From: Acidobacteriota bacterium
GTDB taxonomy: Bacteria; Acidobacteriota; UBA6911; RPQK01; JADFOI01
Reading direction: 5' to 3'
DNA: 64,000 bases
Assembly: GCA_963663035.1 (NCBI GenBank)
Contig: OY760074.1
Location: forward strand, 3,296,001 to 3,360,000
The notes beneath the pieces are model-generated. The model saw only the letters and a program-made list of their open reading frames with translations. It had not been told where the DNA came from and made no database searches. The position numbers were made by a program, and so were the translations under genes. This document shows positions 5,014 to 26,192 of this stretch, one piece after another (positions within the stretch are counted from its first letter, which is position 1; the number at the start of each line of letters is the position of its first letter).

Positions 5014-5273
5014 CGAACGTCAGCGAAGATTCGAAAAGATCTCTGCCCCCTTGTTTCCTGCCCTATTAGCTTAGCCGAAGGAGTGCATCGGCTGACGAGT
5101 CAGCCTACCTGACAAGGTGATACCCATCACAGCCTGCTAGCCTATCGCTGTGTAGACTGCTCTGGAGGTTACACCTCGCATCTGTTTCGAAAGTGGACTG
5201 TGGATTTGGATAGATGGAAACAGATTCTGTAAACATTCCCAGAGTTACAGTACAGGGGTTATCTCCTTTAGCG

Positions 5274-6001: not shown

Positions 6002-6221
6002 GTGAGTGCCCATTTCCAAAATCGAACAATGCATCCTACGGTCAGTGAAAAATCTAGCACAAAGCTCAAGACGTTGACGCTCATTGAAAAGTTTCAAAGG
6101 TGAGCCAGCCTTGTCGAATTTCCAACAAAAGTCTTCATCCCTTGTCGCAGAGACACGCAATTTCTACCACATTTCTAGCACAGATTCTTATTTACTCCTG
6201 TGCTACCATATCCTCATTCCT

Positions 6222-8114: not shown

Positions 8115-8257
8115 AAAGCCCAAAGGAGTCGGTCCAAATGAAGCGTCCCCACCTCTCCCCGTAAAGACGCTTGTCGGAAAAGTAACACTTTAGTCGCTAG
8201 ACTTTTCTGGCACCTCCCGCTAGGCTTAGGCGGACCAAACTTAAGATAGGAGGTTTC

Positions 8258-8917: not shown

Positions 8918-9028
8918 TCGAGAATTCGCAAACTGCTGAGAATCTTCCCTGACCCGCTTCGACCATCGCTCATCCGGTGACGTTTCGGAAGGCTTTTTCT
9001 GGAGGGGAGGGGCCTGCCCCGCACTCTT

Positions 9029-9502
9029 TTACTGCTTATCGAAAACCTCTACCCTGCTAAACGGCTTACCCTCCGAATTGGTCCCCATCGTTTTGAAGGT
9101 GAAGGTTTTTCCATCCAGAGAGACGGAGCGCATAAAAACCGTGATCAACTTCCCGCCCTTCATGGACATCCCCTCCAGATTATAGGCATCAATGCGCCTA
9201 TCCATCGTGGCGTCACTTCTGGGAGAAGGATTTGCCCTGGGGTGCTCTTCGCCGTCGAAAGCGAGTATGAGCTCGGTGTGGGACGATTTCCCATTGGCAT
9301 CAACCGTATCGCGGGTATTCTTATATGTATCTTCGCCCACTGACTCATACTGGTGTACCAGACTCCGCGGCGCCGGACCCGGGTCGTATATCGATTTGGA
9401 CAGATTGAGCTTCCAAGTACCGATCAATGGGTCGCTCTGCGCCCAGACACTACTAGCCAGGGCCAGGAAAGCCACGGCCGCAATTCCGCTGTACTTTTTC
9501 AT
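9029..9502 (-). CDS. Secreted hypothetical beta-barrel (lipocalin-like) protein
   Basis: Signal peptide MKKYSGIAAVAFLALASSVWAQ followed by DPLIGTWKLNLSKS ... VFDKQ. Confidence 0.7.
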   Translation of the reverse strand: MKKYSGIAAVAFLALASSVWAQSDPLIGTWKLNLSKSIYDPGPAPRSLVHQYESVGEDTYKNTRDTVDANGKSSHTELILAFDGEEHPRANPSPRSDATMDRRIDAYNLEGMSMKGGKLITVFMRSVSLDGKTFTFKTMGTNSEGKPFSRVEVFDKQ

Positions 9503-9641
9503 GGGCTGCTCCTTTACAATTTCTCCACGCATAGACTTCACCTGCCCGATAGTCTAGCCTCCTCATTAAAATAAAGATACACCTCCGCTTGAGTTTCCTA
9601 GGTGGACGAAAAGTGAACGGATGTCTTCACGAAAATGGCTC

Positions 9642-10976: not shown

Positions 10977-11195
10977 CGAATCTCCTTGTGGATCTCCAAG
11001 CTTGGCCAAAAATGATTTGCGCCGTAATAAGTGATTCTATCAGTATTACCGGGATCGTAATTTCCGAAGGCCCTCCTGACACGAGCGTCTTGGATGTGAT
11101 AGAGCGCGAAGACAAGTTGTCAGGTTGCTCGAAGGTTTGACTCGTGACTTCTTGAGGCACACCTGATGCACTCTGTGCCAGGCTGGAGGGAAACA

Positions 11196-11330
11196 TGGTG
11201 CCGGAGGGGGGAGTCGAAACCTCACGAGAGTCACCCTTCGCCGTATTTATGAAGTGAGCCACTAAGGTGAGTCCACTCGACTAGTGAAGAAAAGCTAATG
11301 TTTTCAATCGCTTCCCTGATTTATCGCCAA
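11196..11330 (-). repeat. att junction A: degenerate tRNA-Leu 3' copy plus diverged distal arm
   Basis: TGGTGCCGGAGGGGGGAGTCGAAACCTCACGAGAGTCACCCTTCGCC at 11196-11242 (3 mismatches to the tRNA; anticodon part decayed). CCACTCGACTAGTGAAGAAAAGCT follows and matches the arm at the other junctions. Confidence 0.85.
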
Positions 11331-11652
11331 TCATAAATAGGAAGAACGAGTTTTCGGAAGCCACCGGAAAGAGTCCTCACGCCTTGGTGGTGGGGTCATC
11401 CAGGATGTGTCGGGTTCGGGGAGGAAACGAGCATCGCGTACTACAAGCCAGCCTTGCGGAAGAGGCATGCGCGAGAGTGTTCCTCTGCGCGTCACCCACT
11501 TCATAGCACCACGATCCTGGCATAGTCTTGCGAGCTCAAGTGTTGCCGTTGCATCGCGTGTGTTGTAATCGAGCACCTCAGCATGTTGACCTTGCCCCCT
11601 AAAACGAGTCCAGTTTGAATGTTAGGATTTCCGGTTTAGGAAGGAGGCAAGG

Positions 11653-11931
11653 ATGGCAGGGAAGCGGTTTAGGGCAGAACAGATCATCATGAAGCTGCGT
11701 GAGGCAGAGGTGGGTCTGGCCCAAGGACAGAGGGTGGGACAGGTGTCGAAGCAGATGGGGGTGAGCGAGCAGACCTACTACCGGTGGCGCAAAGAGTACG
11801 GAGGGCTCCGGTTGGACCAGGCCAAGAGGTTGAAGGTGTTGGAGAAGGAGAATACCCGGTTGAAGAAGCTGGTGGCGGATCTGTCTTTGGACAAGCAGAT
11901 CCTGAAGGAAGTGTCCTCGGGAAACTTCTAG
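11653..11931 (+). CDS. IS3 OrfA (HTH + leucine zipper)
   Basis: [16 protein letters not shown]...[15 protein letters not shown]. Ends at the G GGA AAC -1 slippery heptamer. Confidence 0.9.
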
Positions 11932-12824
11932 GCCCGGCGAACAGGAGACGAGCGGTGATGTGGGTACGAGAGCGATTAGGAGCAGAGCGAGTCTCCGAAC
12001 GTCGGGCCTGCCAAGTGCTGGGACAGGTTCGATCGACCCAGCGAAGGGAAAGGCAAATTCCCGATGATGAGGCCCGATTGGTGGCCCGGATGGTGGAGTT
12101 GGCTACGCAATACGGGCGTTATGGCTACCGGCGGGTCACGGCGATACTTCATGGGGAAGGGTGGAAGGTGAATCCTAAGCGGGTGGAGAGGCTGTGGAGA
12201 CAAGAAGGGCTGAAAGTCCCGTCCAGACAGCCGAAACGAAGGAGGCTGTGGCTTAATGACGGTTCCTGTGTTCGGTTACGAGCGGCTCGCAAGAACCACG
12301 TCTGGAGCTATGATTTCGTGCATGAACGGACCCATGATGGGCGAGCCTTTCGGCTATTGACGATCCTGGATGAGTACACCAGAGAGTGCCTCGCCATTGA
12401 TGTGAAACGGCAGATGAATCACCAAGACGTGTTGGACCGGCTGGCGGAGTTATTCGTTGATCGGGGAGTGCCTGAGTTTATCCGGTCCGATAACGGATCG
12501 GAGTTTACGGCACAGGCGGTCCGGGACTGGCTGCAGGCTGTTGGGGTAAGGACCTTGTACATCGAGCCGGGCAGCCCCTGGGAGAATGGGTACATTGAGA
12601 GTTTCAACGGGAAACTACGGGATGAGCTGCTGAACATGGAGATCTTCGACACGCTGGGGGAAGCCAAGGTGTTGGTAGAACGCTGGCGGAGGGATTACAA
12701 TCAGATCCGGCCTCACAGCGCCTTGGCCTATCGGCCGCCGGCGCCAGAGGCCAAACTACCTAGGTCGCAGGCACTGGATCCAATCCCTTGGAGTGGACTT
12801 CAAATGGTCCCGGGTCTAGCATAG
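11919..12824 (+). CDS. IS3 OrfB DDE transposase (reached by -1 frameshift; start approximate)
   Basis: [36 protein letters not shown] and [10 protein letters not shown]. Confidence 0.9.
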
Positions 12825-13403
12825 AGGGTGGACTCGTTCGTGGGGGCAGGTCAATGTCGACCCTCAGCCCACAAGATAGGAGCCTTCGAGCCTTTAATCC
12901 CTGAATGCTTTCCCTTAATACCCATTCCCTGTGCCGCCTTGTCAAGACTAACTAAATGTCCCAGGACGCAAACTGCGTGAAACATAATGTCAACGTGTCC
13001 AAGCGCTAGACTGGCGCACTCCTCGACTAGACCCGACTCTTCGGCAAGAATGTTGAAGTCAAAGTTCAGACCATTCCAGGTAAGGAGAGTGAAGCCGTTG
13101 TTCACCAGGTTAACCAAGTCGAGCACCATCCGCTTGCTCTCTTCATGGCTCATAGATTCCGCGGGCTCCCCAAGTTTGGAACGACCATGCCAAATAAGTG
13201 GTGTCGCATGATCTTCTCTTACCCCAGCTGCACAGCAGATCCCAAGTGGTCTGTGAGACAGTAGATCAGATGTGGTCTCGGGTAGTACCTTAGCCGTTTC
13301 AAGATCGAATGCCAGATATTTCCTTTTCATCCTGTGAGGCTACGGCTTGAGTCTGGTCAAAGTTTCCTTGGTTGAGGAACGACAAACAAAATAAGGAAGA
13401 TGT

Positions 13404-13673
13404 TCAACGGTAAGTCTTTTCACTCCCGGAGAGAATAGCAGAGATTATAATACGACGTGGGGGTTCAGAGAGAGGAACAAAAATAAGGCGATACCGACCA
13501 ACGCGTTTACGGTATCGCCCTTCCCAACCCGCACCCTTAAGAGCCTTTGAATCACCAGCGAAAGGGTCTTTCTTGAGTGTTTCAATGGCCTTGCTAATGC
13601 GTTGCTGGGTGTCACAGGGGAGTTTGCGCAACTGCTTTACAGCGGTACGGGTAAGCTGGACTGACCAGGTCAT
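13404..13673 (-). CDS. Type II toxin, RelE/ParE family
   Basis: 89-aa basic protein: WSVQLTRTAVKQLRKL...YRKRVGRYRLIF. Confidence 0.85.
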   Translation of the reverse strand: MTWSVQLTRTAVKQLRKLPCDTQQRISKAIETLKKDPFAGDSKALKGAGWEGRYRKRVGRYRLIFVPLSEPPRRIIISAILSGSEKTYR

Positions 13674-13677
13674 TTCG

Positions 13678-13941
13678 TTAGAGCTTTAATTCGGTCTTCA
13701 CATCTTCCCAAGCCACAACCTCACCCCGTTGGATATCTTGTTCGGCCTTGCGAACAATGGCTTCCTCTTTTGCGGTGAGAACGTCATCAGGGTCTACAAG
13801 TTTCTTAGGTTTGATGACAACAGTACCGTTTTTTGCGTTCCGGACGACCTCAACGAAATCACCTTGCTTTAGGTTAAGCGCTTCACAAATGTCTTTAGGA
13901 ATGACTACCTGACGGCGTTGACCTAGCTTACTAACAGGCAT
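13678..13941 (-). CDS. AbrB/MazE-like antitoxin
   Basis: KLGQRRQVVIPKDICEALNLKQGD swapped-hairpin domain and an acidic RelB-like tail (AEQDIQRGEVVAWEDV). AAGGAGG RBS; lies 4 bp upstream of the toxin. Confidence 0.85.
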   Translation of the reverse strand: MPVSKLGQRRQVVIPKDICEALNLKQGDFVEVVRNAKNGTVVIKPKKLVDPDDVLTAKEEAIVRKAEQDIQRGEVVAWEDVKTELKL

Positions 13942-13978
13942 AGTTTATGCCCTCCTTAAGGTTGGTGTTTGCCTAGTT

Positions 13979-14007
13979 ATCATACTGTCAGATTCACAGA
14001 TTGTCAG
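13979..14007 (-). promoter_or_regulatory. Putative sigma70 promoter of TA operon with TCTGACA direct repeats
   Basis: Minus strand CTGACA-17 nt-TATGAT. TCTGACA occurs twice across it (possible operator). Confidence 0.4.
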
Positions 14008-14094
14008 AAATACGTCAAGCGACGAGAGTTACAGGAATTATCCCCCACTGACTTGAGGTGCCAATTTGGAGCCTCAAGTCATCAAACTCGGAGA

Positions 14095-14323
14095 TGGGGA
14101 CGAAATGGGAACAGAAGCCTTCTGTTGTGGGAAAAGATGGTGCCGGAGGGGGGAGTCGAACCCCCACGAGAGTCACCCCTCACCAGATTTTGAGTTTGAG
14201 CTAAATCCACTCGATTTGTGAAGAAAAGCTGATATTTATCAACAGGTTCTCGGATTATTCACCAATCCAAATAAGTGAAAGATGACGAAAGATTGAGCTT
14301 TCAACCGGGCCAAAAACGGGCAA
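14095..14323 (-). repeat. att junction B: tRNA-Leu 3' copy (14138-14195) with arms
   Basis: The 58-bp copy has 1 mismatch. The right arm ends in CGGGCCAAAAA-CGGGC (14306-14321). The left side differs from the other junctions but has TGGGGACGAAA-TGGGAACAGAA (14095-14116). Confidence 0.9.
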
Positions 14324-14536
14324 TAATAATCGGGTAGTAAAGGGATACAACAAGCTTAGTACCGAAAAGATTCGGAAAGCGTTAGGAATGTGGAGAGTCC
14401 ATACCGTTGGGTTCCTCACCCAAAGACGCAGAATGCCCCCATCCATCTTTCTGATTCGTATATACAGCAGCTGATATTCCCTTCTAACCTCCCAAAGTCT
14501 TACTTAACATCTCGGAACAATCCGAGGGAGGCTCCG

Positions 14537-14636
14537 ATGCTCGGGACGACCATTTTCCATTACCGCATTCTGGAGAAAATCGGAGAAGTGAGGTGGGGGA
14601 AGTGTCTCGCGTGGAGGATACCAATCTGAAGCGACG
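14537..14636 (+). pseudogene. N-terminal fragment of Hanks-type Ser/Thr protein kinase
   Basis: GGAGG RBS, then [17 protein letters not shown] and, after a frameshift, GEVSRVEDTNLKR. This is a degenerate [26 protein letters not shown]. It stops at the attC-like site. Confidence 0.75.
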
Positions 14637-14730
14637 GTATAACAGTGCCGTTCAGCGGCGAACGGCGCGTCTGCATGAAGCCCTTTTGGCCATAACCGCG
14701 CCGGTCGTCCGCTGCAACGGCGAGTTAGAT
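14637..14730 (+). other. Integron attC-like recombination site (orphan)
   Basis: GTATAAC ... GTTAGAT ends. Inner arms GTTCAGCGG / CCGCTGCAAC pair with an extra base, and CGAACGGCGCG pairs with CGCGCCGGTCG. Length 94 bp. Confidence 0.7.
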
Positions 14731-14911
14731 GCCGGTGTCACGAAGTGCCAAACCCACAGCGCCAAAAGACCCTCATCTGACCCGTTTCCACCTTATCTGA
14801 AAGTGCGAAATCTAATAGTAAGCTCTGGCTCTCGCCACTAATATCCTCCACGATCATGCTTCATGTATGATGCGGCGGGAGCCACATTTTTCCTTTTTCC
14901 ACTCCGTGGCG

Positions 14912-16032
14912 TTAGCCAGTATCTTGGCCCCCATGACGGACCGCCACTAGTGGGCGTGGAAGACAGATATCAACTTTTCTCTCAGTCTCCATAGTCAACC
15001 ATAACTTCGGTAGAGGAAGCTTGCTAGTCGTGCTATTTTCCTTCTCTTCACAGCGTTCCTCCGCTTTTAAAGACGCTTCATAGGGCAATTTGGAGAGGAA
15101 AGAAGCCGAGAATAACTTAGAGGGTAAATCGTCTACGTTGATTTCAATCGAACCTCCCGGCGAAAGAAGTTGATCCACTTGATGGATGTACCCCTCTGCT
15201 TCGAGTTGTTTGACATGCACAGGGCAAGAGCCATGACTCTGGACTTGAATCGTTGAGGAGATCCTGAACTCACCAACCCGGCGAAAGTGAAGAAGAAAAT
15301 CCAAATTCCGATTCACACGCAAGCGTTCCACTTCCTCGAAACTAAATCGTTCTTCTTGCCGAAGGCTCGAGTCCAAGATCTCAATCCACTGGGAGGAATA
15401 CTCTTTTAGAATGCCTTCATACTCAACGGAAGTCTCCCCTTGCAATGCTTCGGCTACCACTCGATGACCGATGTAACGCTCAAGAATAGGTTCAAAAGCA
15501 TTTGGCACTGCTCCCAACACCATTTGACCCATCTGGTTCAAACGGGCATCCTGTGACTGCAAAACCGGTGATTCGACTGACCTCTTTGTTTTCGCTGCGA
15601 TCACGCCAAATGATTGGGTCAATGCATCGCGAAAGGTATTTAAAAAACTCCGGAGACCTCGACGCACAGAACGCCAGAATTTAGGAGGAGCAGCTCGCTC
15701 AATTTCTCGAATCCTCCGTCTTTGATTCTCTTGGGACAACTCGTCATGATAACGGTAAATTGTCCGTAGGCGCGCCAGGTCGCTTTGATACAGAATAAAA
15801 CTGGTCTCGATATGTCCCGCTGAGTCTGATGAGGCGTCGGATAAAGCAATTCAACACTGTTGAAAAAAACATTCAGGCGCCCCCAAACGCACTTACCGTC
15901 ATTCATCTCGATTGTCACGTTGAAACCGGTGAAGTCGTTAAGGCAAAGATCTCGGCTTCGTCGCTGGATGTAAGTCCCTACCAGGGCCGTTACGAAAATA
16001 AAAAGAAGCGTGGCAATGAAGATTGAGTCCAT
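14912..16032 (-). pseudogene. Hypothetical N-anchored membrane protein, frameshifted near 15830
   Basis: ORF 16032 (MDSIFIATLLF...ELLYPTPH) joins, via an alternative frame (DSAGHIETSFILYQSDLARLRTIYRYHDEL), to ORF 15739-14912 (SQENQRRR...). Confidence 0.6.
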
Positions 16033-16263
16033 AGCTTTTCAAGACCACCCTTTACACTACCAGGAACAATGATCGCACCAACCGCCGCCCGCAGCACCCA
16101 TCCAATGGTGCGAAGCTGAGCCGGAGGATATTTCCAATAGATTCACGCTCATTCACCCTCTTTAGAGAGAAGATTGACATTGTTGTGTTCGTTCTTGCGT
16201 CTTTGGGGCGGTAACTCTGTCTGTGCTTTGGCTCACATTCGTGAAGTCAATGCGGGGGCATCA

Positions 16264-16836
16264 TTAATCGTTTTGACAGGCTTCACCTATTGTCTCCCCG
16301 AGTAGGCGTGTCAGGTCCTCGTTGTCGTATCTCATACCTCCCACGATTTCCTTTGCCCGTGATGAGAGTCGTTGATAGCCCCACGTACAACGGCTTTTGG
16401 TTTCCACGCAGCCTTCGCGTTGGTAGTACAAAGGCATGTTCACCTCAAAGAAGGAAATACTATCTGCATCTTTGAGCAGGTCAGAACGCGGATCACCTCC
16501 AACCTCATGAAGGGTCACCAACCGGCAAGCCTCGTCAGCCGTAGCTTTGGTTACACGGCACTTTTCCAGGATCGCTCCCAGAATATCAGCCCCATTACGC
16601 GCATGAGCAGCCTTGAAGGCGTCATAGTTGTCATAATGAGAGCGACGTACCTTTTGGGCTGTGACGGCTCGCTCAATGTCATGGGCGAGAGCGGCAATTT
16701 GCAATGCTTCGTCACTTTTGGGAGCGAGTCTTAACAGCCACTCAAGGGTATTTTCGGCATGGTGAGGGTCTTCTGGAACATCGGAGCCTGCAATAATCGC
16801 TTTGGTTCTTACTTTTGCGCATTCTATGCTATCCAT
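16264..16836 (-). CDS. HD-domain / DUF4202-like protein
   Basis: HAENT..W, AALAHDIERA, HARNGA, HEVGG and LKDADSISFF. ATG 16836 overlaps the upstream stop region. Confidence 0.75.
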   Translation of the reverse strand: MDSIECAKVRTKAIIAGSDVPEDPHHAENTLEWLLRLAPKSDEALQIAALAHDIERAVTAQKVRRSHYDNYDAFKAAHARNGADILGAILEKCRVTKATADEACRLVTLHEVGGDPRSDLLKDADSISFFEVNMPLYYQREGCVETKSRCTWGYQRLSSRAKEIVGGMRYDNEDLTRLLGETIGEACQND

Positions 16837-18145
16837 GATCGCGGCAAACGATAACACGGCGGATGGTTTCAAAGTTCATCGCTATGGCAAGCACAAAGAG
16901 CGTCAAATAAGGCTGGTTGAATAGGGCACCTAAGAATATCAGCAAGAGTCGGAGGTCGCGGCCCACACGAAGTCCCTTGCCCCAACGGCCGAGCATGCGC
17001 TTGTCGTATTTGTCCGCGGTATAGCTCACCATGAAGGAACCGGTAATCGCCAGAAATCCAGTCAATAGGATGAGGCTATCCAAATCGTTTGCGTAGGCGT
17101 GCCAGGTGAGGCCAAAAAGAAGGGCTGCGTCGGCATAACGGTCCAGGACCGCATCGAGCCATCCTCCGTAATGGCTGCTTTGGAACTTGAGCCGCGCTAC
17201 TTCCCCATCGCATCCGTCGATGACCGAGGCGAACTGGACCAGCAAACCGCCCAGCAAAAGCATGGCATAACTCCCCAGAGAAAACAGACCAGCGGCCAGT
17301 ACCGAACACAGGAAGGAAAACAGGGAGATTTGATTGGGGGTGATCGGGTACTTCATCAATTGGCGGGAAATCCTTGCCGACAACGGTCGGTTGACGTGAC
17401 GTGAGACAGGCCCATCGCTGGGCTTGTCCCCCAGATTAGCCAACAGCGCGTTCTCTGCCCGCCTAAAGGCCGTGGGATCATCTACGTCAATCACGAAGTA
17501 ACCCCTAACCTCAACAGTTTTAACCCGATCCTGGCCGGCCAGGACACGCACCGCTGCGGACAGACTCGTATCGCCGTATTCCTTTGCGCAATACTCCAAC
17601 GCATCAAAAATGGAAGGAGTGCAGAGGAAAATACCAGTGTCAAAGCCATTGAAGTCCGTCAAGCCCTTACCGATGTCACGTAACTTGTCCCCTTCCGTCT
17701 TGACTCGGGTGACATCCTCCATATCGATGAGGGGATTGCCAATATTACTGTCTACGCCCAGGATGATTTCGCCGTCGGTTCGAGGAACCCTCATCAACTC
17801 GCGGGCAATGGTTGGATCAAAGAGATGATCCGCCATCAGCAACAGAAAGGATCCACGCAGATACTTCCGTGCCTTGAGCACCGAAAGGCCGTTTTCTTTT
17901 TTCCAGTCCTCGTTAACAATTGGGGTGATATGAACTTCCAGACGGTCGGTCAGACGGTTCAGAAAGTCTTGAACACGCCTCCCCTGGTATCCGGTAACTA
18001 CATAAAAGTCATCCACTCCGGCCTCCAGCCCTGAGCGGATGACCCTTTCAATCAAGGGAACCCCTAAAATGGGGGTGAGCGGTTTGCAACTACCGTTCTG
18101 CCGTAGCCGGCTTCCCTCCCCAGCCGCGATAATGAGACACTTCAC
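16829..18145 (-). CDS. Bifunctional NTP-transferase / CDP-alcohol phosphotransferase (IPCT/DIPPS-like)
   Basis: KCLIIAAGEGSRL..KPL, ENGLSV, LLMADH, DTGIF and DVDD; then DGPVSRHVNRPLS, TPNQIS and DGCDGEVAR...GGWLDAVLDRYAD. Start GTG 18145. Confidence 0.85.
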   Translation of the reverse strand: MKCLIIAAGEGSRLRQNGSCKPLTPILGVPLIERVIRSGLEAGVDDFYVVTGYQGRRVQDFLNRLTDRLEVHITPIVNEDWKKENGLSVLKARKYLRGSFLLLMADHLFDPTIARELMRVPRTDGEIILGVDSNIGNPLIDMEDVTRVKTEGDKLRDIGKGLTDFNGFDTGIFLCTPSIFDALEYCAKEYGDTSLSAAVRVLAGQDRVKTVEVRGYFVIDVDDPTAFRRAENALLANLGDKPSDGPVSRHVNRPLSARISRQLMKYPITPNQISLFSFLCSVLAAGLFSLGSYAMLLLGGLLVQFASVIDGCDGEVARLKFQSSHYGGWLDAVLDRYADAALLFGLTWHAYANDLDSLILLTGFLAITGSFMVSYTADKYDKRMLGRWGKGLRVGRDLRLLLIFLGALFNQPYLTLFVLAIAMNFETIRRVIVCRDHG

Positions 18146-18316
18146 ACTCACCGACTCAGTCGTTCGTGGCGCCCCAAGCGTGACCGCTAGCCCAGCGCAA
18201 TCAGCTGGCATCTGTTTTGGAGTATCAGTGACAATCTCTGGCGATGGGCTTGCTTGGAAAACGGTCGAGTCCCGGCCCGGCTTAAAACTGCCAGGCGGTG
18301 TCAGACCCGTGCCCGT

Positions 18317-18353
18317 CGGTACCTCCAACACCCTTCGAGTGTTGGAGGTACCG
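18317..18353. repeat. Perfect 15-bp inverted repeat (REP-like hairpin)
   Basis: CGGTACCTCCAACAC-CCTTCGA-GTGTTGGAGGTACCG. Confidence 0.8.
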
Positions 18354-18740
18354 GAACGAATCATGTGCAGCAGTGAAGTCCACATTTCAGTTCTCCAAAC
18401 ACACTCGCACTCCGGTTGCAGTGCGGTCGAAGCAATTCATCTGACCGACTATGGTTCCGGACTTGGTGACTCGACACACCTGGTTTTGAGCTGCCTCTGT
18501 ATCTTCTGCGTTGCTGTGCCTAAAAAGGAAAAAGAGGGGCAAGCTCTTGTGGTCTCCCCAGGGGAGAAGAGAGGTTCTTAACCGCCCTTATCTTCACCCG
18601 CCACCACGGCCCTGTCAAGGGGGAAGCGCTTTTCCGGTGATTCCTCCCGAACTGCGACCACTGGAGTCCTCTGATTAACAGACCGAAATAGGGGAGATCA
18701 CAAAAGTAAGACGGGACGGAACTCTTTTGGTTTTTGACCA

Positions 18741-19160
18741 GATGGCTTGATTGTAAGCATTAGGCGTGCTCAATAGTGGGCACAGTCTGGGCACATCACC
18801 CAACTAACTTACGTTTTATCAATAGGTTGAAATGCCGCACTAGATCTCCTGTCTGGAGAGCACCAGCTGAAACCCAAGGAATAAACGGGTTTCAGCCGAT
18901 GTGGGAGACGGAGACAGGGGAGTCAGCTTTCTCGAGTCTGAAAAAGAGAGAAGACTTTTCTGGAGTGAAAACCATGGTGCCGGAGGGGGGGGAGTCGAAC
19001 CCCCACGAGAGTCACCCCTCGCCAGATTTTGAGTCTGAGTGAGTTCCACTCGATTTGTGAAGAAAAGCTTATATTTATCAACCAGTTCCAGGATTCTTCG
19101 CCAATCCAAATAAGTGAAACATTACGAAAGATTGAGGTTTGAAGCGGGCGAAAAACGGGC
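18741..19160 (-). repeat. att junction C: complete attP-like site (left arm, tRNA-Leu 3' core 18975-19037, right arm)
   Basis: GGGCACA-GTCT-GGGCACA at 18778-18795 and TATCAATAGGTTG at 18817-29. The core has 2 extra G. CGGGCGAAAAA-CGGGC at 19145-19160. Confidence 0.92.
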
Positions 19161-19164
19161 GGCG

Positions 19165-19254
19165 GGCACAAACCGCTTCCTTGTCATGTCTTGCCTCATT
19201 TTTAAATCGAAAAGCCTAACATGCAACCTGGACTCGTTTTAGGGTGTAAGGTCA
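19165..19254 (-). mobile_element. Remnant left end of an IS3-family element
   Basis: Reverse complement TGACCTTACACCCTAAAACGAGTCCAGGTTGCATGTTAGG...GAGGCAAGACATGACAAGGAAGCGGTTT closely parallels the IRL and orfA start of the IS at 11587. Confidence 0.8.
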
Positions 19255-19630
19255 ATTTCTTGCGAGAGAATAGCCTTGATGCTGGGCTGAGTTATGATGA
19301 GAAAGATCATGAGAAGCGATTGGCAGAAGAATTTTCCTTGGTGGAAAGAAGGAAGAAGAAGAGGAAGAGGATAGGGACCCAGAAGAATTGAGGAGACGTC
19401 TTATCGAGCAACACAATCAGCAGACAAATCAAAAGTATCCAGAAATCTCCGCTGAACTTCTAGCCTTGTTATGAGACTGAAAGTGTAAGTAGTGTAATCA
19501 ACCTAGAAACTGAGTCAGGTATCAGACTCGGGTTAACCGGATTGGGGATTTGCAGTCCGCACACGATTCTTGGAGGAATGCGCTTGAACTTGGATACAAC
19601 AATTTCAAAATTCGAGTGTGCTACTTCCCG

Positions 19631-21835
19631 CTAACCGCTCAGCCATGCCTGCAGAATGGCCTTGATCTGGTTCCAAAAAAGGGCGCTCAGGAGCGCGACA
19701 GTGAGCAGAGCGGCCAGCAGGGCAACCAGGCCGACACGAGTCCAACGAAACACGCCGTATCCGGTTTGACGTAGAAAGAGGGTGACCAGGTCGCGGCGTT
19801 CCTTGCGTGCCCCTTCTGGCAAGTGGGGCGTGTGGCTGAAGAGATAGCCGAGCCGTCGCGTCATGTACATGCGGAAATTCACCGCCCAGCCGCACGCCTC
19901 CAACAGAGCGCTCATGTCCCGCTTGCGCAGCTTGTTCCAACCCGAAAGTGCACTGAACAGGGCCACCACCAGCACCAGGCTCACCAAGGCAATGCCGGCT
20001 TTCAGAAAGCTGATCTGCGAAAGTGTCTTGATCAGGTAGACCAGCGAGGAACCGACAGCGGCGAAGGCAATGCCGCCACCCAGCAGCAGGTCGCGCATGC
20101 CAGGGCTGGAAGGGGGTGCCGCTCCCGCCGATGGCACCTGGGTAGGCTGCTGGAGCGACTCGCCTTTTTCCATCTTCGTTGTGATCTCGGTGGTGGCCTT
20201 TTCCAGAGACCCGGCCCGGGTGCCTGCAAAGGCTTCAACCTTCTCGGAGAATAGCTTTTTTGCTTTCACAAAAGGCGACTTGATCGCCTCCCACAGGCTG
20301 ATGGGATTCTCGACCATATCCACTACTCGTGCGTCCCACTCCTTGCCCTGCAGATCATAGAAGATACCGCGCTTGCCAATTTCGAGGGCCCCCTGGCCGC
20401 CAGCCGTGAGGGCGGCGGCAATCTCGAAACTCCGCCCCTGCTCCTGGGGCATGGTGATCTCGGCGTACACCAGAAACATCTTGCTGGTCTGGGCGATCTT
20501 CTTGTGCTCGGCGCGGTTTCGGACCTTCACTGTAAAGGCAAGTTCGCGGCCGTCAATGATCAGGTCGCCTAATTCAAACAGGGCACGGCGACTGGGGTCG
20601 TACAGCGCCGAGAAACTTACAAAGTTGTTGGCCAGTTCCAGGAGCCAGCGCTGGTACAGGATGAGCTTCTCCAGGTCAGTCACTTGCTTCACCTCATCCT
20701 TTACCGCCAGATCCTCCAGTAGGAGCTGGAGAAGTCTTTTCTGAGCCGGACCATCTAAGTATTCTTTCAGCGTGGTCTCACTCAACTCACTGACGCCATC
20801 CGATGGCTTCTCCGCCTTCCACGCACAATAGGGCTCGAAGATGGTCTTGACCTGCTGCCAGCCGATCCGCGTGAGAGATTCGTGGGAGTCCGGCTGGGCA
20901 CGGGCAAGGACCCGGTCTTGTAGTTCGTCCATCTGATCCTGGTAGTACGGATTGATGGGGCCCTGCAAGTTCAATACACCTTCAGCATTAGGCGTTTGCA
21001 GTGGCGCTTGCGCGAGCTGTTTTTCCATGGCCCCGAGGTCGGAGCCGTCCAGGTTTTGGAGATCTTGTTGACTCAGGCTGATCCGTTCGGCGGTGCGGGC
21101 ATCGAGCTTTACCAGGTCGCACTGCCAGAAGAACTGTTCGATCTTGGCATCGAGTTCAGACGTGAGCTTCACGGCGGCCGCCGTGTCGTCGCCCCAGGGC
21201 AGAATCCCTGCCGCGCCGTCATCTTCGGCGAGTGCCTTCCAGGCCAGGTAATTCCTCACACCATCCAGGAATTGGCACAGGTGACCTTCGTTGATGCCGT
21301 CTGCGCCGCTCATATCCTTGGTACTGCCCACCTGCTCGAGTACGTCACTTGCCAACTGTGCCGCAGCCGGATCCGAAACGTGCTGGGGGGGGAGTACCCC
21401 GTCGCCGTTGGGAGGGGTCATCCCGTACGTATTCCGAAAGATGCGCACCTGTTCCAGGCTTATCTCGTCCAAGTTCTTGACCTTCAGTTGTCCCAGGATA
21501 TGGATCGCGGCTTCCTTGAGCTTCCGGCCCTCCTCGTGGCTGGTATCCAGGTCCGCGAGGCGAAGGACGTCTGAGGAATCGGCCATTCGGTCGCCTTTCG
21601 CTATCATACGGAACATCCATCTCACTGCCGCCCGCAAATGCTCGGCACGGATGGTCCCGCTACCGTCCTGATTCAAGTACTTGAGGAACGCGGGATCGCA
21701 CTGTAGGCTTTCGATCTGCACGCTGGTGGCGGCCCAGCGAGCTGGGTGGAGCTGGTGGATGAAGGCAAGATCCTCCGCGCTCTCGATGCGCAGTTGGTGG
21801 ATCCCGCCGTAATTTCGGAAGACAATGGGCTTCAT
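19631..21835 (-). CDS. Uncharacterised 734-aa protein with EF-hand-like loops and C-terminal TM helices
   Basis: ATG 21835 MKPIVFRNYGGIHQLRI. Loops NQDGSGTIRAE, NGDGVLP and DMSGADGINE; GKRGIFYD..GKEWDA. Three hydrophobic C-terminal segments. Confidence 0.75.
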   Translation of the reverse strand: MKPIVFRNYGGIHQLRIESAEDLAFIHQLHPARWAATSVQIESLQCDPAFLKYLNQDGSGTIRAEHLRAAVRWMFRMIAKGDRMADSSDVLRLADLDTSHEEGRKLKEAAIHILGQLKVKNLDEISLEQVRIFRNTYGMTPPNGDGVLPPQHVSDPAAAQLASDVLEQVGSTKDMSGADGINEGHLCQFLDGVRNYLAWKALAEDDGAAGILPWGDDTAAAVKLTSELDAKIEQFFWQCDLVKLDARTAERISLSQQDLQNLDGSDLGAMEKQLAQAPLQTPNAEGVLNLQGPINPYYQDQMDELQDRVLARAQPDSHESLTRIGWQQVKTIFEPYCAWKAEKPSDGVSELSETTLKEYLDGPAQKRLLQLLLEDLAVKDEVKQVTDLEKLILYQRWLLELANNFVSFSALYDPSRRALFELGDLIIDGRELAFTVKVRNRAEHKKIAQTSKMFLVYAEITMPQEQGRSFEIAAALTAGGQGALEIGKRGIFYDLQGKEWDARVVDMVENPISLWEAIKSPFVKAKKLFSEKVEAFAGTRAGSLEKATTEITTKMEKGESLQQPTQVPSAGAAPPSSPGMRDLLLGGGIAFAAVGSSLVYLIKTLSQISFLKAGIALVSLVLVVALFSALSGWNKLRKRDMSALLEACGWAVNFRMYMTRRLGYLFSHTPHLPEGARKERRDLVTLFLRQTGYGVFRWTRVGLVALLAALLTVALLSALFWNQIKAILQAWLSG

Positions 21836-21963
21836 AACGCACATTCTACTCCATTGCAGGGAATGTAAGGCAGTACGAGATCTGAACAGGTCAAGGCTCG
21901 GGCTTGGGCATGTGCAGCCGACACCTCTCCCTGACTTGGCTGAGTCCGAGAGGAAGGAAGAAG

Positions 21964-23410
21964 TTATGAAAGGAGTCGTGCCAGCACGAGCAGGTTGTAG
22001 CTCAGGACCGAAAGGTGCGCGTAGCGCTGAAAGTGAGACCAAAGACCCGCTTGGCCATGGAGATGCAACCTTCAATGCCGGCTCGGAATCACCTCAGCTG
22101 TTTGTAGACCCAACTGGATCGGACCAGGTCCTGGATTTTCGATCCTAATTTCTTGGCAAAGGCCACGTCCTTGACGCCTTGCTTTTTGGCCCATTTGAGA
22201 TTGCCCGAAGAAGCAAAGCCGCCATCCAAACTGGCCTGGCGAGGGTAACGCCCGTACAAGTCGCACTGACGCTCCAGCAGGGGCTCGAGCTGTTGGCTGT
22301 CGGCTGGATTGCCTCTGAGCAAAAGAGCATCCAGGATCAGCGAGGACTTGCCAGCGGTCGGATAGAGCTTATGGCCAAAGAGGCTCTCGCGTGCGCCTTT
22401 TTCGATAATGTCGGTGTGTTCTTCAAAGATGGAGACGATCTTTTCGGTAGCCGGGACCTTCTGGCCCAGGATCACCCGACGGTGAGTTTGTTGGATCACT
22501 CGTCCCAGCAGATCCAGATGGTGGGCCAACGCACCGGCGCCAGGACTGGGCTGATGGGGTCCTGCCACTGCGGTGCCTGCTCCAGTGCCCGGGTGCCGTA
22601 ACCAAGGGTCCAGCCAGCGATCTTCAAGAGATCCCGATAATGCTTTTTGCGCTTCTCGCCCCGACTATTTCAGATGTTCAAACAACGTTTTTTGGCATGT
22701 CTGGAATGATCCACAAAAGAGAGGGACTCAGACGGGTTCAACTGCTTTAAAAGGCGGGTCACGACCCGAATCGAATTGTAAAGCAACTGGCTATCGAGCG
22801 GATAGCGGATGTTGCTTTGGACTCCGGTGGCATCCCCTCGAATCTTACGCCCTTTTTCCAAACCTTGTCTTATCAGCCCAACTGACCAGCACCCGATTGA
22901 CGGCCTGCCCAGTGGAGGCTTCAATCCGCGAGATGTTCTCCTGCAAGGTGGATTTGCTGGGGGTGAACCCAAAGGGCAGCCGGCAGAAAGTCCGAAAGCT
23001 CTGCGAGTCGACCAGGTGAAAAGCCAGCTTTTCATAACTGAACTGGTGGGTTTGTTTGATCAGAGCACAACGCAGGACTTGCTCAGCCGTCATGCCCCGG
23101 GCTCCCTTCTTGGAGCTGATTTTGTCACACAGATCGTGTAGAACGAGATCGGAGATCGATGGATTTTGATCCAGGATCTTGGAGATCGATTCCAGTTCCC
23201 GGGCCAGGCGATGATCGGGCCAAGAAGGGGAAAGAGGGAGTTGATTTTCTCGGTTCTTACGCATTTTCGGGCTCCTGGTTTTGTTTTAAGTCGTTTTTTT
23301 TATTGGTTTATACCAAATGACTTATCAAACGACCCCGACGAAATCAAGGCTCGAAAACGCGTACTTACCCTTTTATTTCCAACCATTTACAGGATCCCGG
23401 ATGGGATCTA
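21964..23410 (-). mobile_element. Degraded ISNCY-like IS (transposase pseudogene 21964-23264)
   Basis: Fragments MRKNRENQLPL..GMTAEQVLRCA..FSYEKLAFHL, NIRYPLDSQLL, EKIVSIFEEHTDII, GNPADS, SLDGGFAS, KQLR*FRAGIEG and SYNLLVLAR, with several frameshifts and stops. Probable end TAGATCCCATCCGGGA at ~23410; the other end was not located. Confidence 0.8.
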
Positions 23411-23766
23411 TCTAACTAACACTCTATCAATAGGTTAAAATACCGCACTAGATCTGCGGTCTGCAGAGGCACCCGCTGAAACCCAAGGAATAAGCGGGTT
23501 TCAGCCGATGTGGGAGACGGAGACAGGGGAGTCAGCTTTCTCGAGTCTGAAAAAGAGAGAGGACTTTTCTGGCGGGAAAAAATGGTGCCGGAGGGGGGAG
23601 TCGAACCCCCACGAGAGTCACCCCTCGCCAGATTTTGAGTCTGAGCTAAATTCACTCGATTTGTGACGAAAAGCTGATATTTATCAACCAGTTCCCGGAT
23701 TTGTCACCAGTCCAGAAAAGTGAAAGGTTACGAAAGATTGAGCTTTGAAGCGGGCGAAAAACGGGC
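23411..23766 (-). repeat. att junction D: perfect 61-bp tRNA-Leu 3' copy (23583-23643) with arms; left arm cut by IS
   Basis: The core is identical to 26104-26164. The left arm is near-identical to junction C from AACTAAC onward, with TATCAATAGGTTA at 23425-37. CGGGCGAAAAA-CGGGC at 23751-23766. Confidence 0.93.
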
Positions 23767-23965
23767 GCACTGTCTTGGTTAGACAGGGTTCATTCATTAG
23801 GTTACAAAGTGTAGGCCCGCCAAAACTCCGCCTCACCATAGAACGCAAAAGTCGAGTATTTGCGCTGACGCGTGGTCTGCAGAAGACGATGCTTGTGGAC
23901 ACCCCTGTAACGTAGTATTGTCCTTGTTGTAATTTCGGAACGGAATTGGAGGGACTCCAACCCCT

Positions 23966-25615
23966 ATGAATATTTTGCTCTATAACCCCGACAACCAGAT
24001 GACGCGGAACTACATGCCCCATCTCTGGATGTTTGTTCTCAAAGCCCTGACTCCACGGCAGCATCAGGTGTTCCTGATCGATGGGAATGCCCAGCCCATC
24101 AGTGAGCAAGAGATGGCGCAGTTCATTCGAGAAAAAGAAATCCAACTGGTGGGCATCGGAGCCATGACGCGAATGGCTGCCAGCGCCTACCGGATGGCAG
24201 ATGCCATCCGCGCCGCCGGTGCTTTGGTGGTGATGGGAGGGCCCCACGTCAGCGAGGTGCCCGACGAGCCGATCGGACGAGAAGAGGAACCTCGCCACGC
24301 CGACGCCGTCGCTTTGGGTGAGGTTGACGACATCTGGGCAGACATCGTGCGAGATGCAGAGCGAGGTCAACTCCGGGAAGTCTATCGCCACACCGACGAG
24401 TCGGGCAAGGACATGAGGCCCTCGCTGGAGAACTACCCGGAGATCCCCTGGGAAGAGATCGATCTGAGGCAGTTCGACCTGCTAGGGAAGGTCCCGGCCT
24501 GGGGAAGATACCTCCTGAGACGGGTCGGCATGGACTGGAATAGTCTCTACATCCTTCCCGTCGAGTCGGGCCGCGGGTGCCCTTATGGCTGCGATTTTTG
24601 CACGGTCACAGGGTTCTTTGGCAAGTCGATCCGCTTTCGCAGCAACGAAAGCGTCATCAATGAACTTCTGCGCCTCAAAGCGCGGGCCGCTTCCGAGAAA
24701 GGCAAGGTGGGTGTCTTTTTTATCGACGACAACTTTGCCATCAACATCAAGCGAACCAAATCGCTGCTGCGGGACATGATTGCCCAGAATGCCACGCTAC
24801 CTTGGGTGGCTCAGATCAGCATGAACCTGCTGCGGGATGAGGAACTGGTTGATCTGATTGCCCAGAGCGGGGGGCGTTGGATTTTTATGGGGCTGGAGTC
24901 GATCGATCCCGCGAGTCTGAAGGAAGTGAACAAGGGCTTCAATGATCCCCAGCAATACCAAGCCGTTCTTGATCGGCTGGCCAAACGGGGTGTCTACGCC
25001 ATCACCTCTTTCATCTTCGGAATGGACGGAGATCGACCCGGAGTAGCCGACAAAACCCTTGAAGCGATTGAGTCATGGCCTCCCGGCCTCCCTGTCTTTG
25101 GACTTCTCACCCCTTACCCTGCCACCCCCCTCTATGATCGTCTCCTCGAGAATAAGCGCCTCACGCGCCCCAAGCACTGGCTGGACTTTCGGCCTTTCCA
25201 GATGGCCTTCACACCGGAGCATATCAGTATCGAGCAGGCCGAGCAGGAGGTACGGCAGGCCTGGAGCCGCTGCTACAGCCCCGAAGCCATTGCCTCGGAT
25301 CTGAAGAAACTCGAAGGACGCCCCTTTAACGAGCGTGCCGTCCTCTTTTTCACGCGGCTGGCTTTTCGCGGCATCTATTTCCCTCAGATGACCTTGAGGC
25401 AATGGCTGGGGTTGTTTTTCAGCAACGGCCGAAGCCTTCTGCGTCTGGTGGGAGAGGGTTTCGCGACTCATCGCCGGCACCGGCGCAAGCAGCGCGAGAC
25501 CTCTCCTGCTGACGGGTCGGTGAATCAGGCTAGTGGTGTCCCCTCGCCCGCTATTGGGATCGAGGCCACACCGGCGGGCCCCGTTGCCGAGCGCCCTGTG
25601 GTCGGCCGGACTTAG
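23966..25615 (+). CDS. Cobalamin-binding radical SAM protein (class B methyltransferase-like)
   Basis: N-terminal B12-binding domain (LVGIGAMT, VVMGGPHVS, ALGE), ESGRGCPYGCDFC, FIDDNF, FMGLES, FIFGMDGD and TPYPATPLY. Confidence 0.9.
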   Translation: MNILLYNPDNQMTRNYMPHLWMFVLKALTPRQHQVFLIDGNAQPISEQEMAQFIREKEIQLVGIGAMTRMAASAYRMADAIRAAGALVVMGGPHVSEVPDEPIGREEEPRHADAVALGEVDDIWADIVRDAERGQLREVYRHTDESGKDMRPSLENYPEIPWEEIDLRQFDLLGKVPAWGRYLLRRVGMDWNSLYILPVESGRGCPYGCDFCTVTGFFGKSIRFRSNESVINELLRLKARAASEKGKVGVFFIDDNFAINIKRTKSLLRDMIAQNATLPWVAQISMNLLRDEELVDLIAQSGGRWIFMGLESIDPASLKEVNKGFNDPQQYQAVLDRLAKRGVYAITSFIFGMDGDRPGVADKTLEAIESWPPGLPVFGLLTPYPATPLYDRLLENKRLTRPKHWLDFRPFQMAFTPEHISIEQAEQEVRQAWSRCYSPEAIASDLKKLEGRPFNERAVLFFTRLAFRGIYFPQMTLRQWLGLFFSNGRSLLRLVGEGFATHRRHRRKQRETSPADGSVNQASGVPSPAIGIEATPAGPVAERPVVGRT

Positions 25616-25862
25616 CCGCACCGGATATCTGCCTCCCTTCTGACCTACGACCCATTTCGAAAAACGGGTTCTCCTAAGCCCGTATTGGAAATTTCTCCGA
25701 GTCATTAGATATTCATTAAATGGAGGCCGTTTTTGGCCCTCTCAGGGTAGATTGGATTCTCGTAATTTACTGATTCTATTGTGCCCGGTGGGGAATCCGC
25801 ACCCTCACGAGGGAACGCTCCAACCGCTCCCCGGGCTGCAGTACGCACACAGTTCTGAGCAG

Positions 25863-26103
25863 AAATGGTTTGATTTCAGGAATTAGAACAGGTCAATTGA
25901 GCTCAATAGTGGGCACAGTCTGGGCACACTTTCCCAATAAGTGTTTTTTTCAGAGACTTAAAATGCCGCACTAGATCTCCTGTCTGGAGAGCACCCTTGA
26001 AACCCAACGGGTTCAAGGGGTTCAGCCAAATACGGCTGAGGGAGACAGTCGAATGAGCTTTCTCGGATTGTCAAAAGAGACAGAGGACTCTGGCGGGAAA
26101 ACA
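25863..26103 (-). repeat. Conserved arm immediately downstream of tRNA-Leu (end of the proximal unit)
   Basis: GCTCAATAGTGGGCACAGTCTGGGCACA and AAATGCCGCACTAGATCTCCTGTCTGGAGAGCACC are identical to junction C. Confidence 0.9.
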
Positions 26104-26192
26104 TGGTGCCGGAGGGGGGAGTCGAACCCCCACGAGAGTCACCCCTCGCCAGATTTTGAGTCTGGTGCGTCTGCCAATTCCGCCACTCCGGC
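26104..26192 (-). tRNA. tRNA-Leu (anticodon CAA)
   Basis: GCCGGAGTGGCGGAATTGGCAGACGCACCAGA-CTCAAAA-TCTGG, long variable arm, GGGGGTTCGACTCCCCC-CTCCGGC-A-CCA; 89 nt. Confidence 0.97.

Follow-up and report, generated by a model that had tools for sequence, protein, structure and literature searches.

How four sets of unrelated genes, none of which encodes a recombinase, came to be stacked behind a single tRNA gene is the question raised by a stretch of 64,000 nucleotides (positions 3,296,001 to 3,360,000 of contig OY760074.1; hereafter the window) from the genome of an Acidobacteriota bacterium. This 3.59-Mb single-contig genome is referred to as G000 (contig C1); other G numbers denote comparison genomes (G001-G006 from the same genus, G009 from another genus) and L numbers denote fetched loci or contigs (L089 was taken from G053, L097/L098 correspond to G074:C22:705064-730830, and L074 is the same as L078). 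A first-pass annotation of the window had proposed that four copies of the 3' part of tRNA-Leu(CAA) divide the region behind the intact gene into units, and both a repeat search and ARAGORN agreed with this. Unit 4 adjoins the tRNA and is followed by copy D, then by unit 3 (copy C), unit 2 (copy B) and unit 1 (copy A, the most distal); the terms before and after are used in the order read on the tRNA strand (minus).

The intact tRNA-Leu(CAA), which forms the left attachment site (attL) of the array, was located at 26104-26192 on the minus strand (ARAGORN; 58.4 bits against the Rfam tRNA model). The repeat search identified a 76-nt family of five members, namely the tRNA and four partial copies, starting at 11181, 14123, 18962, 23568 and 26089; these were 74-100% identical to the reference copy and were spaced 2942, 4839, 4606 and 2521 nt apart, start to start, from copy A towards the tRNA. 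Identity with the tRNA runs from the 5' strand of the anticodon stem (CAGACTCAAAATCTGG), past the CCA end, to approximately 15 nt beyond the tRNA. The copies (tRNA') are direct repeats of the last ~61 nt of the tRNA and lie at lower coordinates, that is downstream of the gene, all on the minus strand: copy D (23583-23643, 61 nt) is 100% identical to the 3' part of the tRNA, copy C (18975-19037, 63 nt) has two extra C residues in the T arm, copy B occupies 14138-14198, and copy A (11196-11256), besides being the most distal, is the most decayed, with a mutated anticodon loop. A core pattern search placed the core, the anticodon stem-loop CCAGACTCAAAATCTGG of tRNA-Leu(CAA), at 26149-26165 on the minus strand.

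Shared arms had also been proposed, one at every copy (diverged at A) and a second at the tRNA, at copy C and, truncated, at copy D, and alignments and nhmmer searches bore this out. The first of these, armL (the P arm, ~125 nt), precedes all four tRNA' copies and was found on the minus strand at 23644-23770 in unit 4, 19038-19164 in unit 3, 14199-14325 in unit 2 and, in diverged form, at ~11265-11338 in unit 1, where it was recovered both as a member of the repeat family and by nhmmer (E 2.3e-6, profile positions 53-122). The versions at B, C and D are mutually 86-92% identical, and the four window copies, each of which meets the 3' half of the tRNA at the anticodon stem, gave nhmmer E values from 9e-36 to 2e-6. 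The second, armR (the P' arm, 170-240 nt), was found on the minus strand after the tRNA in unit 4 (~25901-26103, 77% identical to the copy-C armR over 210 nt), at full length after copy C in unit 2 (18768-18974), and after copy D in unit 3 (23412-23582), where it is truncated, 91% identical to the copy-C armR over 169 nt and without the distal tandem motif. The armR of unit 4 contains a mimic of the anticodon stem-loop, CCAGACAGGAGATCTAG (25971-25987, minus strand), and the tandem motif GCCCAGACTGTGCCCA (25910-25925, minus strand), the equivalents in unit 2 being at 18840-18856 and 18777-18792; the armL of unit 4 carries the tandem GCCCGTTTTTCGCCCG at 23751-23766. No armR-like sequence was found after copies B and A, and both arms are kept only in units 4 and 2. 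The copy-C armR is 98% identical to that of L080, while armR forms without the proximal 180-220 nt were seen in other samples, in G005 and in L083. Elsewhere in the 3.59-Mb genome the arms were not found, with the exception of one diverged orphan armL (C1:74479-74594).

The annotation had reported no integrase in the units, which the searches confirmed: none of the eight PF00589 matches of the genome and neither of its two PF00239 matches falls within the window, and no tyrosine or serine recombinase, whole or broken, was detected there by Pfam or by an integrase hidden Markov model (HMM; built from six G000 integrases and one open reading frame (ORF) of G001) run on all frames. When 20 ORFs of at least 81 aa and 10 small ORFs were searched against Pfam, the sole matches related to integration or mobility were insertion sequence (IS) transposases, the small ORFs being without a match; relaxase, coupling-protein and type IV secretion system families were absent from the Pfam results for the ORFs of the array. 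The idea that armR itself is a decayed integrase gene was rejected, given that searching the window by tblastn with the integrases of G001 and G004 returned nothing better than E 0.6, and that tblastx and blastn against integrase loci matched only the cassette's own arms.

Integrases do stand at the same tRNA in sister genomes. A tyrosine integrase convergent with tRNA-Leu(CAA), 25-50 nt from the tRNA end, was identified in G001, in G003 and in G002, where it has 363 aa (PF00589 1.3e-28) and precedes a DUF3631 gene; G004 has a fragment at a contig end and G005 a remnant of 93 aa, which brings the count to five of the six same-genus genomes. None was seen in G006, which is fragmented. Convergent integrases abutting a tRNA are also present in L087 and L089, and such a gene is absent at the window array. 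The tRNA-Leu(CAA) integrases, those of L087 and L089 and a gene of G000 next to tRNA-Arg(TCT) form one family (43-63% identical). This last gene (C1:2030905-2031977, with the tRNA at 2032032-2032109) is the only integrase of the tRNA-adjacent family in G000, and its N-terminal ~50 residues lie in another frame than the rest, owing to either a genuine frameshift or a fault in the assembly. In G002, the closest relative (92% over 14 kb of flank), the integrase and DUF3631 element takes the place of the array, and armL is absent. Two further loci connect the arms to such elements. In L089, tRNA-Arg(TCG) is followed by a convergent truncated integrase (~225 aa) and ~6 kb of cargo, after which come armL and a perfect copy of the tRNA-Arg 3' half; on this evidence armL is the distal (P) arm of a tRNA-targeting integrase-island family. 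L075 reads cargo, armL, tRNA' and then the P' sequence of a G002-type integrase element, indicating that cassettes and integrase-bearing members share one array elsewhere.

Searches beyond the locus, which the annotation had recommended, recovered armL from 15 of the 76 genomes of the order and from 12 of 13 metagenome contigs fetched by pattern, with varied cargo. Of 137 genomes of the class, 11 contained its most conserved block, none of them among the 61 that lie outside the order, and viral contigs gave no match to it; by these searches, armL is widespread yet confined to one Acidobacteriota order. In all genomes and contigs that have it, armL meets the 3' half of a tRNA at an identical point, and the partner is Leu(CAA) in the window's family and G073, a second leucine tRNA, probably Leu-TAG, in G003:C52, G004:C61, L076 and L077, and Arg(TCG) or Arg(TCT) in G024, G049, G053, G054 and G074, with a degenerate Arg(TCG)-like half in G051. 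The cargo beside armL in these other loci is diverse and without mobility genes; it includes an Na/Ca exchanger, LemA with DUF2207, ankyrin repeats, an LCAT-like hydrolase, an amidohydrolase, GSDH, SelO, DUF2306, an OEP/HlyD efflux pair, a glycosyltransferase, a gluconolactonase, a dicarboxylate symporter, a TonB-dependent-receptor-like outer-membrane protein and a rhomboid protease. Apart from the truncated gene in L089, no integrase was found in the metagenome armL contigs or beside the other cassettes. L091 has ~5 kb, integrase-less, between tRNA-Arg(TCT) and an armL-tRNA' junction, and in L085 armL stands 50 nt behind tRNA-Arg(TCG) with no cargo.

Neither of two other identities considered for armL was upheld. 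No Rfam match was obtained beyond the tRNA-like parts and no conserved fold was apparent (RNAalifold, applied to 20 armL copies, predicted no pairs on one strand and, on the other, 13 pairs without compensatory change), which speaks against an RNA gene, and its variation, judged by eye, was not the codon-like kind that a small ORF would show. In L080 (1668-1785), L075, L079, L083, L072, L052, L050, L071 and L053 the arm continues ~115-135 nt further inward from armL at 87-96% identity; the window cassettes are without this extension.

Three of the window cassettes were traced to other genomes, where they have other neighbours. The radical SAM (rSAM) cassette of unit 4 is 91% identical to that of G005 over 1990 nt (flanks 79-83%) and 95% identical to that of G009:C151, from another genus, over 534 nt (flanks 68-71%); it is first in the window array and second in G005, behind a 10-kb island with an integrase remnant. 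The cassette for an 814-aa protein (unit 3) is 95% identical to G001:C62 over 2245 nt (flanks 77-83%) and 96% identical to L083 over 2504 nt, with other neighbours in both, and the IPCT cassette (unit 2) is 93% identical to L080 over 1668 nt, where it is preceded by a cassette other than the 814-aa one. The 15-kb interval behind the tRNA in the window is missing from this place in G002, G003, G013 and G005. G074 has tRNA-Leu(CAA) with three copies and no PF00589 match within 33 kb. This array (L097/L098, from a distant family of the order) comprises three integrase-less units, one of which ends in an armL-family arm, while the other two have a different common end arm that retains the GGCGAAAAA..AAATCCGGGG block.

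Breakpoints in other loci fall on the core. In L054, L074 and L073, armL and a core of 17-20 nt are joined on their own to unrelated DNA, and in G005 armL is joined to CCAGACAGGAGATCTGG, the sequence of the armR stem-loop mimic (window 25971-25987 and 18840-18856); breakpoints of this kind are what strand exchange at the core predicts. Site-specific integration at the tRNA core is all but certain as the way in which the array arose.

The arms also have in common a tandem motif, GCCCR-N6-GCCCR, for which five matches were counted in the 64-kb window compared to 0.74 expected, no shuffle reaching five; since the motif was defined after inspection and the arm copies share descent, these statistics are indicative only. 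The five matches lie in armL at copies B, C and D and in armR after the tRNA and after copy C, all on the tRNA strand, so that the tandem is found in both arms of units 4 and 2, and in units 3 and 1 in armL only or in decayed form. A total of 42 matches was obtained in 565 kb of fetched loci. The motif was placed 170-184 nt upstream of the tRNA' end in 15 entries (three of them second fetches of the same contigs) and 51-186 nt downstream of the tRNA or tRNA' end in six, namely in integrase-bearing elements (L089 at +51; G001 and G003 at +61, within the 3' end of the integrase gene), in a unit of G074 (+82) and in the armR of L080 (+183) and L081 (+186). At ~62-75 nt behind the tRNA end there is another site, TGTCTCC(C), present in armR and, as a tandem with 11-nt spacing, in the elements of G004 and G054 that bear an integrase. 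Another candidate, AGCTCAWT, was discarded as not significant (eight matches in the window compared to 5.15 expected; 14 of 100 shuffles reached eight). Lambda Int uses arm-type sites, and the arm motif may likewise be bound by the integrase.

The array is a tandem of four small recombinase-less integrative elements that arose from repeated site-specific recombination at the anticodon stem-loop, each consisting of a tRNA 3' copy with its P' arm (armR), the cargo and a P arm (armL); the stacking of elements with this layout leaves attP-like junctions (armL, tRNA', armR) between units. The arms are genuine attachment-site arms and belong to the tRNA-targeting tyrosine-integrase island family of the order, autonomous members of which carry the tRNA-convergent integrase, and the integrase would have come from an integrase-bearing member at the same tRNA, as in the sister genomes, either supplied in trans or through accretion in cis. 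Integrase-driven excision and integration would be the route by which the cassettes spread between genera. On balance we consider it probable that the units are integrase-less cassettes, resembling cis-mobilizable elements (CIMEs), on which tyrosine integrases of a tRNA-specific family act in trans or through accretion. This is favoured by the shared, site-bearing armR, by the lack of integrase debris, by the spread across genera with changing neighbours and by the breakpoints precise to the core; action in trans and circular intermediates are predictions from sequence comparison. The annotation's cassettes of attachment arms plus cargo, moved in trans, thus stood as regards the arms, the varied cargo and the recurrence across genomes, and less well as regards this array, in which only two units keep both arms and whose genome encodes no intact family integrase. 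Movement of the array in G000 has probably ceased, given the lack of that integrase, the loss of the distal P' sites of unit 3 next to an IS remnant and the lack of a P' arm in unit 1.

Several observations weigh against the handling of cassettes by such an integrase. The annotation had looked to an integrase next to the same arms, and one was found at the same tRNA in G001-G003 (with the G004 fragment and the G005 remnant) and, truncated to ~225 aa, with armL in L089, but in no element was an intact integrase found together with armL. G002 and G003, which have an intact integrase at tRNA-Leu(CAA) and are 88-89% complete, show no armL of the Leu-CAA type, and the 95%-complete bin G009 has a pair of armL cassettes, its only recombinases being two Xer-like ones; most of the relatives are fragmented bins that recover islands and repeats poorly. 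At their P' start (~58 nt behind tRNA') the cassettes of G005 and L083 resemble integrase-bearing elements, a likeness that simple deletion of an integrase gene would also explain. G000 is full of other tRNA' relics and broken integrases, suggesting that decay is common there, and the arm motif, defined post hoc on arms related by descent, amounts to about two independent occurrences in the window. Public runs were compared as Logan assembled contigs, not reads, and the parts left uncovered carry no information; these contigs showed neither an excised circle nor an empty site nor the deletion of a single cassette, and their arm joints have short sides of 26-49 nt. A whole junction with both neighbouring cassettes is spanned by no public contig, and the order of the cassettes given here is that of this one assembly.

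A bolder form of the cassette reading, which we advance only tentatively, is that the units are dedicated miniature cassettes, the counterpart among tyrosine-integrase islands of miniature inverted-repeat transposable elements (MITEs), which would retain nothing but two sets of arm sites and a tRNA 3' copy around one to four cargo genes, and may circulate among genera and be inserted, excised and reshuffled singly by any co-resident integrase of the family, with the tRNA as the anchor of an integron-like array of exchangeable cassettes; at Arg and other Leu tRNAs, related arms would play this part. Compared with the known systems treated below, the units stand out in being small, in ending sharply and in keeping both sets of arm sites across many cargoes and genera, which points to propagation as minimal cassettes rather than to mere wreckage.

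The strongest rival, which we regard as rather unlikely, is that each unit was an autonomous island which later lost its integrase, the classical origin of a CIME, that none ever moved in trans, and that the sharing among genomes reflects vertical descent with loss or ordinary recombination. Decay of this kind is visible in the material: integrase remnants lie beside the same tRNA in G005 and G024, the L089 integrase is truncated and the family integrase of G000 is frameshifted, unit 1 lacks armR and that of unit 3 is truncated, and tRNA' relics without nearby integrases are present in G000 for Ala-TGC (three), Asn (two), Asp (two) and Leu-TAA (three), to which may be added the first ~58 nt behind tRNA' in the G005 and L083 cassettes, similar to the P' start of integrase-bearing elements. 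Against it, PF00589 and the integrase HMM detected no integrase fragment in the four window units or in the three units of G074, and three units have a homologous non-coding armR with the tandem motif in common, which independent deletions would not yield. The cassettes, moreover, are 91-96% identical where their flanks are 68-83% identical and their neighbours differ. The annotation had held that its cassettes would be in doubt if relatives showed each unit as a deletion remnant of a large integrase-bearing island, if integrase fragments lay inside the units, or if the arms occurred only here with invariant cargo, and none of these was found.

Transformation followed by RecA-mediated exchange through the junction modules of 200-430 bp would dispense with an integrase once the first integrations had taken place. 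The modules are 77-95% identical within and between genomes, and contigs of other samples contain chimeric arms with joints at equivalent arm positions (23701>14258 and 23463>18815), and homologous recombination through them could contribute. As the full explanation it is improbable, because the breakpoints in L054, L074/L078, L073 and G005 lie at the 17-nt core or its mimic and not along the arms, because armL variants travel with their cargo (the rSAM- and 814-linked armL share signature bases across genomes), and because the arm motif also occurs in integrase-bearing elements. Hardly credible is the view that the junction module is a small dispersed tRNA-derived repeat, similar to a MITE or a short interspersed nuclear element (SINE), set between ordinary genes that are not cargo, for although the module is non-coding and repeated and the orphan armL with its core lies apart at C1:74479-74594, all copies have one orientation at one locus directly behind the parent tRNA, the 15-kb interval is missing from this place in the four genomes named above, and the genes between the copies are bounded by the same arms in other genomes.

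The units measure 2.5-4.8 kb and contain one to four cargo genes each, on both strands, and Pfam searches of these ORFs agreed with the annotation that their interiors are unrelated. Unit 4 encodes a B12-binding radical SAM protein of 549 aa (23966-25615, plus strand; PF04055 1.1e-15, PF02310 3.5e-11). Between this gene and armR lies a 3' fragment of tRNA-Leu(TAA) (25726-25815, minus strand; 78% over 90 nt to C1:2363179-2363268), which is a relic of an older attachment site; the fragment is absent from the G005 copy of the rSAM cassette, and the arrays of L084 and L087 likewise combine relics of different tRNAs. The main gene of unit 3, which the annotation had called a 734-aa membrane protein, is instead an ORF of 795-814 aa with C-terminal hydrophobic segments and no Pfam or PADLOC match (19631-22075, minus strand); its nearest atlas clusters are labelled 'EF-hand domain-containing/hypothetical', a lead only. 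Unit 2 contains a fused nucleotidyltransferase and CDP-alcohol phosphatidyltransferase (IPCT/DIPPS-like) of 518 aa (16829-18385; PF12804 1.1e-13, PF01066 3.1e-10), a DUF4202/HD-domain protein of 202 aa (16264-16872; PF13875 1.6e-20) and two overlapping ORFs of 130 and 275 aa without a Pfam or PADLOC match (14912-16032), all on the minus strand. Unit 1 encodes, also on the minus strand, a MazE/AbrB-type antitoxin (13678-13941; PF04014 1e-10), a ParE-type toxin (13404-13673; PF05016 4.1e-8) and the N-terminal 159 aa of an RNase H-fold 3'-5' exonuclease (12851-13330; PF13482 7.6e-7), which is split by an IS3-family element and whose frame, by coordinate arithmetic, resumes in the ORF at 11331-11576 once the element is removed. 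When defence-system models were run on 10 cargo proteins, one weak match, of the radical SAM protein to PDC-M51A (26.9 bits), was the only result, and a defence role of the cargo is not supported by it.

Two insertion sequences in these units had been overlooked in the first inventory of mobile genes. The element in unit 1 is an intact IS3-family member of 1271 bp with two overlapping ORFs (HTH_Tnp_1 and rve; 11583-12853, plus strand; PF01527, PF00665, PF13683), of which the 3.59-Mb genome has ~46 full-length copies at 99.2% identity or more; so many near-identical copies are, on sequence grounds, the mark of a recent IS burst. An allele without it (joint 11582>12854) is present in contigs of two runs, and a 3352-nt contig from another sample lacks the element and otherwise differs by 0-2 letters; the absence from a near-identical contig indicates a recent insertion, unrelated to the attachment-site system. 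In unit 3 a decayed IS5-like transposase, with DUF772 and DDE_Tnp_1 in different frames, was identified at 22089-23264 on the minus strand (PF05598 1.4e-8, PF01609 0.0025). This remnant is present as a single copy in the genome and is absent from the 814-aa cassette in L083 and G001; the joint 21910>25830, without the remnant, was found in contigs of three runs and a nearby joint, 21923>25828, in a fourth.

Beyond copy A, no further tRNA' or arm copies were detected in window positions 1-11195 by blastn-short or nhmmer. The genes to the left of this copy (~5100-11195: ORFs of 676, 219 and 170 aa, and CreD) are non-syntenic in the relatives, and CreD, considered as a conserved far flank, was not found with this query in five of them, which leaves the far boundary of the island uncertain. 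G002:C179 has a 29-nt tRNA-end remnant 0.8 kb from a homologue of window 4183-5062, and from this the island may once have reached to about 5.1 kb of the window.

Partial tRNA copies were also observed elsewhere in G000. The three of Ala-TGC lie within 3.7 kb, and together with the two of Asn, two of Asp and three of Leu-TAA they occupy C1:2354464-2358102, 1393718-1395311, 2701866-2704716, 69830-74101 and 2880764-2880832, some being far from the parent tRNA; no PF00589 match stands beside the Ala and Asp sets. The occurrence of these relics without a nearby integrase suggests that integrase-less arrays of attachment-site relics are a genome-wide habit. The genome has four tRNA-Leu(TAA) genes in total, two of which, 12 kb apart (G000:C1:1248845-1260880), enclose a 338-aa tyrosine recombinase of another family (C1:1255782-1256795). 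The diverged orphan armL runs into the Leu(CAA) stem-loop core, beyond which the resemblance to a tRNA ends, and lies near two Leu(TAA) 3' halves (69830 and 74043) and a copy of the armR segment with the stem-loop mimic (80566-80613); this region may be a second, decayed array away from tRNA genes.

Among known systems the CIMEs are close to the units in structure. They are defined by the retention of attL and attR and the loss of integration and transfer genes (PMC5704250, in the available part of that text), and the units correspond to this definition by structure, being bounded by attachment sites and without genes for integration and excision or for conjugation. As in streptococcal islands of the ICESt1/ICESt3 type, in so far as the same text covers them, the elements stand in tandem at the 3' end of the target gene with chimeric attachment sites at the internal junctions. 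CIMEs are, in that text, described as decayed integrative and conjugative elements (ICEs) or integrative and mobilizable elements (IMEs), mobilised in cis by an adjacent ICE, whereas the window has no ICE and no trace of conjugation genes; Pfam and the integrase HMM found no remnants of ICE or IME genes in the units, although the P' start of some cassettes resembles integrase-bearing elements. The family in the window differs further in keeping both non-coding arms as modules across many cargoes and several genera. The ssrA islands of Dehalococcoides are likewise tandem islands behind one small-RNA gene, bounded by direct repeats of its 3' end, and 15 of them without an integration module were proposed as possible CIMEs (McMurdie et al. 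2011, PMC3146451). In the portion of that report available, the target is ssrA, the repeat is 20 bp and the integrase is the serine integrase DsiB, in contrast to a tRNA, a repeat of ~61+15 nt, an integrase family of tyrosine type and long P and P' arms with tandem motifs here.

Tycheposons of Prochlorococcus (Hackl et al., 10.1101/2020.12.28.424599) resemble the array in their integration at tRNAs with flanking partial tRNAs, and the accessible part of that work also describes older elements pushed inward by successive integrations, degenerate elements and additional partial tRNAs dispersed over the islands, and adaptive cargo. They have their own integrase and a replication module, and their degenerate fragments are there said to 'lack clear boundaries', whereas the window units are sharply bounded by arms; the combination of a replication module with its own recombinase, the hallmark of a tycheposon, is absent from all four units, and the sole hint of a replication module is the DUF3631 gene beside the G002 integrase. 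The annotation had likened the array to a working integron. Integrons do share ordered cassettes, promoter-less in appearance and mostly of single function, with common sites and a tyrosine recombinase encoded outside the cassette, but they have intI beside attI and a folded single-stranded attC, as opposed to double-stranded lambda-type arms with a core and a mixed cargo orientation; the integrase of the relatives sits on the cassette side of the tRNA, unlike the intI/attI head. Neither a resident integrase beside an attI nor an attC-like folded site was found, and no common promoter was seen, though no test for one was made; the likeness is a loose analogy of function, not of architecture or type of site. 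A lambda-type attP is similar in its parts, with an inverted-repeat core (here a 5-bp anticodon stem and a 7-nt loop) and arms bearing 11-nt-spaced direct repeats, known in this case from sequence alone; no xis and no IHF-type sites were identified at the array.

Literature searches, whose coverage did not extend to supplementary files, returned no description of these Acidobacteriota arrays. With its pair of arm motifs, its core and a family of candidate integrases, the locus is a defined system in which the mobilisation in trans of minimal integrative elements can be put to a direct test; were such mobilisation to fail, it would still show in well-resolved form how islands grow by accretion and decay. 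Islands in tandem at tRNA and tmRNA genes are known, integrase-less members among them, and are usually treated as wreckage; the clean ends, the presence of both arms with their common motif and the recurrence of the same cargo in other genera at an identity well above that of the core genome suggest that non-autonomous cassettes may regularly carry genes between uncultured Acidobacteriota of marine sediments.

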